A stretch of DNA of 18,551 bases from UHGV virus genome UHGV-0121047, one strand, 5' to 3'. The DNA is from a virus. The position numbers were made by a program, and so were the translations under genes. Below, piece by piece: positions 13,127 through 14,520 of this stretch (positions are counted from its first letter, which is position 1; every line of letters begins with the position of its first letter). The notes under the pieces are model-generated. The model had not been told where the DNA came from. It saw only the letters and a program-made list of their open reading frames with translations, and searched no databases.

Positions 13127-13201
13127 GGGAGATTGACGGTAATTGGTAAACCTATCTCGCTTAGAACGAGATGTTTGAGGGTTCGAATCCCTTGTCTCCT
13201 A
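13127..13201 (+). tRNA. tRNA with Leu anticodon TAG but class I architecture (5-nt variable loop)
   Basis: Anticodon arm TCTCG-CTTAGAA-CGAGA perfect, T arm GAGGG-TTCGAAT-CCCTT, acceptor GGGAGAT/GTCTCCT with G-U pairs, discriminator A, CCA encoded. Confidence 0.65.
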
Positions 13202-13211
13202 CCAAATTAAT

Positions 13212-13284
13212 GCAGGTGTAGCAAAATGGTTATGCGGCTGACTCTTAATCAGTAAGACGATGGGTTCAATTCCCTCCACCTGTA
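13212..13284 (+). tRNA. tRNA-Lys (anticodon CTT)
   Basis: Acceptor GCAGGTG/CACCTGT, anticodon arm GCTGA-CTCTTAA-TCAGT, T-loop GGTTCAATTCC; shares the weak ATGGG/CCCTC T stem with tRNA-Lys(TTT). Confidence 0.65.
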
Positions 13285-13293
13285 CCAAACATT

Positions 13294-13366
13294 GGGGATG
13301 TAGTTTACATGGTTAAAACATAAGTTTTGCAAACTTAAGTACAGGGTTCAATTCCCTGCTTCTCCA
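13294..13366 (+). tRNA. tRNA-Ala (anticodon TGC)
   Basis: G3-U70 wobble pair in the acceptor stem (Ala identity element), anticodon arm TAAGT-TTTGCAA-ACTTA, T arm CAGGG-TTCAATT-CCCTG, CCA encoded. Confidence 0.8.
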
Positions 13367-13375
13367 CCAATTAGT

Positions 13376-13447
13376 GCATCCATAGTTTAAACGGGAAAAT
13401 TACAGTCTTCCAAACTGAGGTTGAGGGTTCGATTCCCTCTGGATGCT
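13376..13447 (+). tRNA. tRNA-Gly (anticodon TCC)
   Basis: Perfect acceptor GCATCCA/TGGATGC, anticodon loop CTTCCAA, T arm GAGGG-TTCGATT-CCCTC, CCA encoded. Confidence 0.8.
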
Positions 13448-13456
13448 CCAAACAAT

Positions 13457-13530
13457 GCTGCTTTCGTATAATTGGCTATTACACATCCCTTGTAAGGATG
13501 GAAATGCAGGTTCGAGTCCTGTGAGCAGCA
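13457..13530 (+). tRNA. tRNA-Thr (anticodon TGT)
   Basis: Acceptor GCTGCTT/GAGCAGC, anticodon arm CATCC-CTTGTAA-GGATG, T arm GCAGG-TTCGAGT-CCTGT, CCA encoded. Confidence 0.8.
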
Positions 13531-13559
13531 CCAATTCAGAGGTCAAGTGAAAGACCGCT

Positions 13560-13625
13560 GGTGTCAACTGAAGACCGTAACAAATTCCACGGAGTTGAGT
13601 TAGCGGCACAACTTCAGACCTCTTT
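13560..13625 (+). repeat. Degenerate relative of the stem-flanked elements (CTGAAGACCGTAACAAATTCC ... CTTCAGACCTC) with its own inverted repeats
   Basis: Shares the GAAGACCGT core with elements B and D; CAGAGGTC (13537-13544) and GACCTCT (13616-13622) are complementary. Confidence 0.3.
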
Positions 13626-13628
13626 CAT

Positions 13629-13700
13629 ACTCGCTTAGTTTATATGGTAAAACATCACCCTTACAAGATGAAGAAAAAGGTTCAAGTCCTTTAGTGAGTA
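13629..13700 (+). tRNA. tRNA-Val (anticodon TAC)
   Basis: D arm GTTT/AAAC, anticodon loop CTTACAA (one C-A mismatch in stem), T arm AAAGG-TTCAAGT-CCTTT, acceptor ACTCGCT/AGTGAGT, CCA encoded. Confidence 0.65.
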
Positions 13701-13704
13701 CCAT

Positions 13705-13779
13705 GTTCCAGTATCCCAATTGGCAGAGGATGCAAGCTCAAACCTTGTATTAGTGACGGTTCGAATCCGTCTTGGAACA
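13705..13779 (+). tRNA. tRNA with Leu anticodon CAA but class I architecture
   Basis: Acceptor GTTCCAG/TTGGAAC, anticodon arm GCAAG-CTCAAAC-CTTGT, 6-nt variable loop, T arm GACGG-TTCGAAT-CCGTC, CCA encoded. Confidence 0.6.
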
Positions 13780-13801
13780 CCAATTTTAAGAGGCTATTTA
13801 G

Positions 13802-14359
13802 ATGAGATATTTGAAGTATGCTTCATGGATTTTCCTAGCTTTACTAGAACCATTTGCAGCATCCCTAGCAGTCATCTTAGCACCTTTCGTAGTTCCATTC
13901 TACAGTGAGAAGAAAGGACATCTACCTTTTGGATTCAGATGGATGGAGACCTATGACAACCCGATTGATGGTGATGAAGGCCACGTTAAAAGATGGGCTA
14001 AGATTAGAAAGATTGGTAAGCTGGGTGTCTACATGCAGAGAGTTGGATGGCTCTGGAGAAACAAAGCTTATAACTTCTCTTACCATGTACTAGGAAGAGA
14101 TATAAAAGATGTTACTAAGTGGAAAGGTAATATCAACGTAAGTTCTGACCCTGAAGATAATCAGACTGGTTATCTCCTAATGTGGAACAGTAATGCTTGG
14201 GGATTATTCGCTTTTATCCCATCAATTAAAGTCTTTGGTAAACAGTTTTACTGGAGAATTTATATTGGATGGAAACTAAAAAGTGTTGTCCCAGAAGAAA
14301 GAGCACTCTCAAGGGAAAGAGTTATGTTGGCATTCTTTATTCATCCACTGAGAAAGTAA
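13802..14359 (+). CDS. hypothetical membrane protein embedded in the tRNA array (185 aa)
   Basis: ATG 13802 with AAGAGG 11 nt upstream; N-terminal hydrophobic helix (SWIFLALLEPFAASLAVILAPFVVPF); Trp-rich body; flanked on both sides by tRNA genes. Confidence 0.7.
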   Translation: MRYLKYASWIFLALLEPFAASLAVILAPFVVPFYSEKKGHLPFGFRWMETYDNPIDGDEGHVKRWAKIRKIGKLGVYMQRVGWLWRNKAYNFSYHVLGRDIKDVTKWKGNINVSSDPEDNQTGYLLMWNSNAWGLFAFIPSIKVFGKQFYWRIYIGWKLKSVVPEERALSRERVMLAFFIHPLRK

Positions 14360-14367
14360 AGATTTAA

Positions 14368-14440
14368 AGGGGATTAGTTTACAAGGTTAAAACCTCGGTC
14401 TTTGAAATCGAAGAAGTTGGTTCAATTCCAACATCCCCCG
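14368..14440 (+). tRNA. tRNA-Gln (anticodon TTG)
   Basis: Anticodon arm TCGGT-CTTTGAA-ATCGA, T arm GTTGG-TTCAATT-CCAAC, acceptor AGGGGAT/ATCCCCC with unpaired 1:72, CCA encoded. Confidence 0.75.
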
Positions 14441-14445
14441 CCAAT

Positions 14446-14520
14446 GCTCCATTACTCCAATTGGCAGAGAGGCCAGACTTAAAATCTGTGTTATGTATCG
14501 GTTCGAATCCGATATGGAGT
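14446..14520 (+). tRNA. tRNA with Leu anticodon TAA but class I architecture
   Basis: Acceptor GCTCCAT/ATGGAGT, D region CCAATTGGCAGAG shared with the CAA tRNA, anticodon loop CTTAAAA, T arm ATCGG-TTCGAAT-CCGAT, CCA encoded. Confidence 0.6.

Follow-up and report, generated by a model that had tools for sequence, protein, structure and literature searches.

The window analysed here, an 18,551-nt stretch of the virus genome UHGV-0121047, carries a phage transfer RNA (tRNA) array in which the three genes with leucine anticodons, UAG, CAA and UAA, lack the long variable arm that is the hallmark of bacterial class II tRNALeu and are built instead as class I tRNAs, with variable loops of 5-7 nt. 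Judged from their sequences, the three probably encode genuine, functional leucine acceptors, in which a bacterial tRNALeu body is combined with the class I build. The array is that of a Felixounavirus (Felix O1-type): positions 12700-15800 are 98% identical to Felixounavirus genomes, including those of Salmonella phage GEC_vB_B1 and Escherichia phage ekra, and the region is matched by 294 phage records in all, where the three genes are labelled tRNA-Leu.

Structure of the three short-armed genes

All three genes lie on the plus strand and are called by both ARAGORN and Rfam: tRNA-Leu(UAG) at 13127-13204 (78 nt with CCA; anticodon 13162-13164; A73 at 13201), tRNA-Leu(CAA) at 13705-13782 (78 nt with CCA; anticodon 13739-13741; A73 at 13779) and its paralogue tRNA-Leu(UAA) at 14446-14524 (79 nt with CCA; anticodon 14480-14482; A73 at 14521). 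Their scores against RF00005 (44.5, 44.0 and 47.5 bits, respectively) exceed the gathering score of 29 and mark them as canonical tRNAs, and the two programs concur in placing each anticodon in a 7-nt loop after U33. The CCA end is encoded in all three, a feature omitted from the first-pass annotation of this DNA, which had described 75-nt class I folds; this length is correct for the UAG and CAA genes, whereas the UAA gene measures 76 nt without CCA according to ARAGORN and Rfam, and its 3' end (14446-14521 without CCA) is the only coordinate requiring revision.

Segmentation of the genes, with landmarks set 28 nt back from the 3' end and by a 17-nt anticodon arm, yields variable loops of 5, 6 and 7 nt, just as first described: TGTTT in the UAG gene (13172-13176; its last base is U48, the partner of A15), ATTAGT in the CAA gene (13749-13754) and GTTATGT in the UAA gene (14490-14496, also delineated by Rfam), all on the plus strand. 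No extra helix is possible within these loops by ARAGORN, RNAfold or Rfam, in keeping with the definition of class I by a short variable region, usually of 4-5 nt, that lacks an additional stem-loop. Moreover, the minimum-energy structures from RNAfold reproduce the helices of the UAG and CAA genes and show no long arm in any of the three. A long arm emerging on refolding, or a different anticodon exposed by an alternative register, had been named at the outset as grounds for abandoning the class I description; both possibilities are rejected, as neither appears in the RNAfold, ARAGORN or Rfam folds.

The D arm and leucine identity elements

The five distinct tRNALeu genes of Escherichia coli K-12 (leuQ/W/Z/X/U) served as the comparison set. 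In all five, 20 nt lie between the acceptor stem and the anticodon stem, and the D region comprises U8 N9, a D stem of 3 bp, an unpaired 13:22 and the loop A14 A15 U16 Y17 G18 G19 U20 A20a G21 A22. Precisely the same arrangement is found in the CAA and UAA genes (a D region of 20 nt, with a stem of 3 bp and a loop of 11 nt), their D regions being TA TCC CAATTGGCAGA GGA T and TA CTC CAATTGGCAGA GAG G, respectively. Common to both is the motif CCAATTGGCAGAG, at 13716-13728 (+) in the CAA gene, where it corresponds to C12 C13 A14 A15 U16 U17 G18 G19 C20 A20a G21 A22 G23, and, from the gene segmentation, at 14457-14469 (+) in the UAA gene. A D region shared by two of the genes had been remarked upon previously as unusual: it is indeed shared by this pair, but it is the standard D arm of E. 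coli tRNALeu, and, because of this identity of layout, we regard CCAATTGGCAGAG as the signature of a leucine-type tRNA body. The UAG gene keeps the D-loop bases of tRNALeu, but its D region is 21 nt long, with one extra base, and its D stem is irregular.

In E. coli, tRNALeu identity depends crucially on A73, and A15:U48, G18G19 and A20a are essential, whereas neither the anticodon nor the long variable arm plays a decisive part (reviewed in PMC9976931); the same determinants are listed for E. coli leucyl-tRNA synthetase (LeuRS) in PMC6614811. A check of the sequences locates A73, U8, A14, A15, G18G19, A20a, a terminal U48 and a TTCGAAT T loop in all three phage genes, and the whole set predicted to be recognized by E. 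coli LeuRS (a leucine anticodon, A73, U8:A14, A15:U48, G18G19, A20a and U54:A58) thus appears to be present in each of them. The 3:70 pairs are G3-C70, U3-A70 and U3-A70, and the alanine determinant G3:U70 occurs in none. Among class I Leu tRNAs of viruses (173 sequences), A73 is found in 99%, and so is U48; in the other class I tRNAs of those loci (1438 sequences), the two bases reach 56% and 41%, respectively.

Comparison with known leucine tRNAs

The class II tRNALeu species of E. coli (leuQPV, T, U, W, X, Z) and the tRNA-Leu of phage T4 share with the window genes their anticodons, A73, U8:A14, A15:U48, G18G19 and A20a; the E. coli species also have the 3-bp D stem and 11-nt loop, and some of them a G1.U72 pair, as seen in the UAG gene. 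The difference lies in the variable arm, which is 13-15 nt in the E. coli and T4 molecules (85-87 nt overall) and 5-7 nt in the phage genes (75-76 nt). That the arm can be dispensed with is illustrated by an engineered minimal tRNALeu lacking both the variable and the anticodon arms, which E. coli LeuRS charges if A73 and the tertiary contacts of the D and T loops are intact (Larkin et al. 2002, as reviewed in PMC9976931). The phage genes obey the same rule, although they are natural, full cloverleaves and the minimal molecule is an artificial construct. Human mitochondrial tRNALeu(UUR) also has a short variable loop, with A73 and A14 as identity elements, but its degenerate and floppy structure is served by a dedicated mitochondrial LeuRS, and it has no sequence kinship with the phage genes.

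A close parallel exists in Streptomyces coelicolor and its Actinomycetota relatives, namely the type I tRNALeu(CAA), whose D arm (TA GCC CAATTGGCAGA GGC A) and NCAGT variable loop are nearly those of the CAA/UAA family of the window. It comes closer still to an alternative UAG allele present in related Felixounaviruses, in which GCC-CAATTGGTAGA-GGC is combined with a TCAGT loop, matching genes of Mycobacterium, Corynebacterium and Streptomyces. When tested for the Actinomycetota type (short loop, D arm and A73), the CAA and UAA genes conform, through TCC/CTC-CAATTGGCAGA-GGA/GAG; the UAG gene of the window belongs instead to a T5-like family. The Streptomyces-type genes differ from those of the phage in being chromosomal and of high G+C content, often without an encoded CCA, and the Streptomyces copy has one extra base in the D loop relative to the phage CAA and UAA genes. 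Furthermore, it is leucylated by an actinobacterial LeuRS with an adapted leucine-specific domain (PMC6614811), whereas the phage tRNAs must work with the enterobacterial enzyme.

Homologues of the UAG gene in T5-like phages

The UAG gene family extends to 354 phage records, T5-like phages included. In the latter, which belong to a different phage family (Demerecviridae), it is represented by the tRNAL1 (UAG) genes of BF23, phage 5 and TrudiRoth, which are 74-77% identical to the window gene and have its T arm and anticodon loop unchanged, together with a variable loop of 5 nt (RTTTT), the differences in the stems being compensatory; they are distinguished by a regular 20-nt D region, as opposed to the 21-nt region and irregular D stem of the window gene. 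BF23 tRNAL1 itself is a 77-nt class I tRNA that is 74% identical to the window gene, and although six stem pairs differ between the two, pairing is kept at each. The curated GenBank record for BF23 states that exchanging the anticodon of tRNAL1 for CUA 'converts this tRNA into effective amber suppressor'; it follows that this tRNA is charged and used by E. coli translation whatever its anticodon, and such anticodon-independent use is as expected for a LeuRS substrate.

The suppressor record also bears on the proposal that the three RNAs stay uncharged and act outside translation, as decoys or sponges for anticodon nucleases or other tRNA-binding host factors. Arrays of T5-like phages do contain genes annotated as 'tRNA-like RNA with unknown functions', and there are two aberrant tRNA-like elements in the window itself (see below), both of which could be cited in its favour. 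However, a decoy would not need the discriminator base, the Levitt pair (15:48) or an encoded CCA, and yet these are ~99% conserved; moreover, as a suppressor, the homologue from BF23 takes part in translation, and the anticodon set matches the codon demand of the phage. We therefore consider decoys exceedingly unlikely.

Conservation and covariation

A set of 34 related loci, gathered through the terminase gene and by BLAST and representing Felixounavirus, Mooglevirus, PMBT37 and Wc4, carries the same class I Leu genes. The anticodon stem of the UAG gene varies among them with pairing intact: within Felixounavirus it is CCATC/GTTGG, TCTCG/CGAGA (as in this window) or CCTCG/CGAGG, and in Wc4 it is GCTTC/GTAGC. 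In an alignment of class I Leu tRNAs (64 diverse sequences), pairing is seen in 94.7% of stem cells, compared with 56% for shuffled sequences and 35-48% for slid partners; two-sided changes are seen at 18 of the 20 stem pairs, and the covariation score of the alignment on the short-loop cloverleaf is 0.99 versus 0.25. These figures are conservative, because the MAFFT alignment from which they derive misplaces columns, setting the sequences with a 21-nt D region off by one and splitting the UAA T stem. Recurrence in at least 30 related loci, together with the compensatory changes in the stems, thus argues that the class I features are not due to chance.

The related loci also reveal some rearrangement of the genes. 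In seven of them, the UAG slot is taken by an unrelated 77-nt class I Leu(UAG) gene beginning GCACCTA; this is the allele resembling the Actinomycetota type, and represents an allele replacement within one genus. In another (L020, 5124-5202), the acceptor and D arm of the CAA gene are joined to the body of the UAA gene at CCAATTGGCAGAG, creating a hybrid equivalent to window positions 13705-14524 from which ~740 bp have been lost, including an open reading frame (ORF) of the DUF7338 family and tRNA-Gln; it would seem that recombination takes place at the D arm that the two genes share. A direct descent of the UAA gene from a class II gene was also considered, and rejected: the tRNA-Leu(UAA) of Pectobacterium phage Wc4 is class II, but it is not recognizably the same gene, and no deletion event turning class II into class I could be demonstrated from the Wc4 comparison.

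Isotype assignment

Published tRNAscan-SE results for Shigella phage Sf14, a Mooglevirus, place Leu first for the counterparts of all three genes (PMC12482277), with scores of 49.1 for CAA (next 36.1) and 60.2 for UAA (next 54.2); the Mooglevirus CAA gene is the same as that of the window, and the UAA gene differs by 1 nt. We also trained isotype hidden Markov models (HMMs) on viral tRNAs taken from unrelated loci; the anticodon was masked, the variable region was cut out, and only class II sequences went into the Leu profile. In validation, the overall accuracy across 20 classes was 70%, and that for Leu 88%. Of 84 held-out class I Leu tRNAs, 69 (82%) had this class II-trained Leu profile as their highest-scoring model, compared with only 11 of 754 non-Leu tRNAs. 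An isotype model that confidently favoured a different amino acid had been listed in the first-pass annotation as evidence that would count against leucine; our profiles put Leu first for the UAA gene (39.1 versus 30.5 for the next) and the CAA gene (24.7 versus 22.5), and only the UAG gene departs from this, with a tie.

That tie is one of several points that weigh against leucine identity, and these are best considered together. The UAG gene scores 25.4 for Leu and 25.7 for Ser with our profiles, which are 70% accurate overall, and its Sf14 counterpart is not clearly Leu either (67.4, followed by Ile2 at 65.7 and Lys at 63.4). Its D arm is irregular: the 21-nt D region has to be accommodated by either a C.U opposition at 10:25 or a 3-nt connector. 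In addition, Rfam prefers a shifted acceptor register for this gene, starting at 13128 and with a U discriminator; we reject this register because the discriminator would then be parted from the encoded CCA. Homologues of the UAG gene are named tRNA-OTHER or tRNA-Thr in some GenBank records, and the BF23 record is silent on the amino acid that the suppressor inserts. Finally, E. coli LeuRS did not charge the type I tRNALeu of S. coelicolor (PMC6614811); the extra D-loop base of the Streptomyces molecule may be relevant to this failure. As a separate observation, the irregular naming affects homologues of the Leu genes in six Felixounavirus records, and probably stems from the influence of the class I build on isotype assignment.

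The close scores and the variant names, together with a class I build that is otherwise that of non-Leu tRNAs, are what can be said for the charging of these tRNAs with another amino acid, such that leucine codons would be recoded or mistranslated. This is very unlikely, for several reasons. Most synthetases read the anticodon. Seryl-tRNA synthetase (SerRS) needs the long arm (PMC9976931), which excludes a serine identity for the UAG gene, and its discriminator in E. coli is G73, likewise absent here; alanyl-tRNA synthetase needs the G3:U70 pair that none of the three genes possesses. Across the family, A73 and A15:U48 are held at 99%, as in class II Leu tRNAs. Moreover, the three anticodons cover more than half of the leucine codons of the phage itself, and recoding on this scale would damage its proteome. 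Thus, among the three options originally put forward, leucine acceptors are favoured by the determinants, the class II-trained profiles, the Sf14 models and the BF23 suppressor, whereas charging with another amino acid and a decoy function are both disfavoured.

Codon demand and a proposed mechanism

The G+C content of the window is 39%, and in 17 of its ORFs leucine is encoded by TTA (24%), TTG (15%), CTT (29%), CTC (8%), CTA (14%) and CTG (9%). In E. coli, CUG accounts for about half of the leucine codons, and there are four genes with the CAG anticodon and single genes for the other Leu anticodons. The three phage anticodons fit a role in supplementing the supply for UUA, UUG and CUN codons.

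Based on these observations, we propose that the three tRNAs would be charged by the LeuRS of the host, an enzyme that ignores both the anticodon and the long arm, through A73 and the core formed by the D and T loops (U8:A14, A15:U48, G18G19, A20a and U54:A58). In decoding, the UAA tRNA would then serve UUA and UUG, the CAA tRNA UUG, and the UAG tRNA CUA and CUG, and probably further CUN codons; presumably, these are codons that a phage of 39% G+C uses heavily and that E. coli supplies poorly. Of the class II identities in enterobacteria, leucine would be the only one for which the synthetase does not require the arm: because LeuRS dispenses with it, and SerRS and tyrosyl-tRNA synthetase do not, only the Leu tRNAs, and not those for Ser or Tyr, can lose it. 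The loss may simply be tolerated, LeuRS ignoring the arm.

Prevalence of the class I build

Two surveys of viral sequences indicate that the build is far from singular, contrary to the impression first given by this array. A targeted pattern, written for class I Leu tRNAs that have an AATTGG D loop, found at least 120 matches in IMG/VR, nearly all of those listed being confirmed as class I Leu by ARAGORN, often beside a class II Leu gene. In an unselected sample, viral loci were chosen only for two tandem T arms (GGTTCRANTCC), and class was assigned by an 80-nt length cutoff; here, class I accounted for 22 of 67 tRNA-Leu in the first 80 matches and for 19 of 72 in loci not already fetched, i.e. 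roughly a quarter to a third (~26-33%) of the tRNA-Leu in the sampled viral arrays, among the matches listed. The corresponding counts, again among the matches listed, were 0/39 and 0/46 for Ser, and 2/18 and 2/23 for Tyr. The class I Leu genes of the unselected sample also have A73, U48 and Leu-type D arms. Individual phages carry different numbers of them: two in the T5-like TrudiRoth, three in PMBT37 and one in an Acinetobacter phage. Bacterial tRNATyr is normally class II; three of the viral loci have tRNA-Tyr(GUA) calls of only 74-79 nt, which would be class I.

When applied to bacterial genomes, the targeted pattern again gave at least 120 matches, and most of those listed are single chromosomal genes of Actinomycetota, namely of Mycobacterium, Nocardia, Gordonia, Corynebacterium, Bifidobacterium and Streptomyces. 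The actinobacterial genes have UAA, CAA, UAG and CAG anticodons, and extend the type far beyond the single S. coelicolor case of the literature. A few contigs from metagenome-assembled genomes among these bacterial matches hold 17-34 tRNAs within 8 kb.

The distribution of the build is relevant to a further explanation, which is compatible with leucine charging and concerns the reason for the loss of the arm: that its absence would hide the phage tRNALeu from nucleases or toxins that read or cut the long class II arm. In a variant of this idea, the phage copies would be protected from a phage-induced attack on the host tRNAs and would sustain translation when the host tRNALeu is disabled. There are precedents for such a role, as phage tRNAs have been proposed to evade anticodon nucleases through changes in their loops (PMC10264068), and retron-Eco7 and Septu cut the variable loop of tRNATyr, the T5 tRNATyr being resistant by virtue of a different loop. 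The phage tRNAs that escape defence (T5 tRNATyr from retron-Eco7 and Septu, T5 tRNALys from PARIS) differ from the host form at the place where the nuclease reads. Additionally, the build occurs in unrelated phage groups (Ounavirinae and T5-like phages) and in many metagenomic contigs, and despite the share of class I among viral tRNA-Leu given above, a blastn search with the CAA gene, the only gene queried, found no match in 5,426 complete E. coli genomes; the high viral share and the lack of an E. coli match imply that phages maintain the class I form themselves.

Against this, no nuclease is known for the tRNALeu arm, which sets the Leu genes apart from the T5 tRNATyr case, and a literature search found no defence system or toxin that targets the tRNALeu variable arm. 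T4 retains a class II tRNA-Leu of 87 nt, and both classes stand side by side on many viral contigs. The same build is found on the chromosomes of Actinomycetota, where the logic of phage defence does not apply, and the loss of an arm that the synthetase does not need could be neutral or economical. On balance, counter-defence is an unlikely reason for the loss of the arm. The more general notion of arm shedding as an adaptive and widespread phage strategy, furnishing charged copies of tRNALeu unseen by arm-reading enzymes, is similarly doubtful; by analogy, the enzymes imagined might be bacterial counterparts of Septu and retron-Eco7, which act on tRNATyr, or of the animal Schlafen nucleases, which act on type II tRNAs. 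If it were true, natural class I tRNALeu would, as a corollary, be charged in vivo by enterobacterial LeuRS, whereas the S. coelicolor cross-charging experiment leaves the opposite impression.

The surrounding tRNA array

The array that holds the three Leu genes spans 10867-15719 (+) and consists of 23 tRNAs called by ARAGORN and two further tRNA-like matches found by Rfam. Its Ser and Tyr genes provide class II comparators, as the first-pass annotation had recognized: tRNA-Tyr(GUA) at 11370-11457 (88 nt), tRNA-Ser(UGA) at 12783-12872 (90 nt) and tRNA-Ser(GCU) at 15547-15639 (93 nt), all on the plus strand and called by ARAGORN, have long variable arms.

The two additional Rfam matches are aberrant. 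The element at 11463-11548, called by Rfam with 45 bits and absent from the default ARAGORN output, has the acceptor and D arm of the tRNA-Asp(GUC) of phage ekra, but a loop of ~14 nt (ACGTAAAAGGATAT) takes the place of the 7-nt anticodon loop, and the T stem differs by compensatory changes; under relaxed settings, ARAGORN folds it into a 'tRNA-Tyr(GUA)' of 86 nt that has an extra arm and G as its discriminator. This allele is not present in any of 41 related loci. The second element, at 12461-12543 (33.4 bits), occupies a slot that in relatives contains a normal tRNA-Arg(UCU); it has an intact acceptor and T arm and an ACCA end, but no clear D arm, and a spacer of ~21 nt lies 5' of the T arm. 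It, too, was not found among the 41 related loci. In the tRNA region of BF23, the curated record lists 'tRNA-like RNA with unknown functions' and stable RNAs (1266-1339, 2133-2257 and 4578-4721), and these may perhaps be analogous to the two aberrant elements of the window.

Three conserved ORFs of unknown function accompany the array, all on the plus strand. One, at 9286-10701, lies just upstream and encodes a DUF2828+DUF7788 protein for which no relative was found in the PDB; a DUF7338 ORF at 13802-14359 is located between tRNA-Leu(CAA) and tRNA-Gln; and a DUF7217 ORF at 14748-15545 has a listed GTG start that overlaps tRNA-Phe.

Implications

The three genes belong to the usual tRNA complement of Felix O1 and carry the label tRNA-Leu in hundreds of existing records; type I tRNALeu, too, is already known from mitochondria and Streptomyces. 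Of the build in phages, its frequency among them and its pairing with an enterobacterial LeuRS, we found no account in the searchable full-text literature. Textbooks and reviews treat the bacterial type of tRNALeu as class II, and the sole bacterial exception described, that of Streptomyces, is said to need an adapted LeuRS; in the genes of coliphages and Salmonella phages, by comparison, the full leucine identity set of E. coli is found on a class I scaffold.

Several consequences follow. Annotation pipelines may mislabel class I Leu genes as tRNA-OTHER or tRNA-Thr. The phage genes constitute a natural test set for the action of bacterial LeuRS on arm-less substrates and, as far as their sequences allow prediction, would offer compact, LeuRS-chargeable scaffolds for suppressor design that do not depend on the anticodon. 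They also raise a question about tRNA-directed immunity. Overall, the survey suggests that class I tRNALeu is routine in phages and in Actinomycetota.

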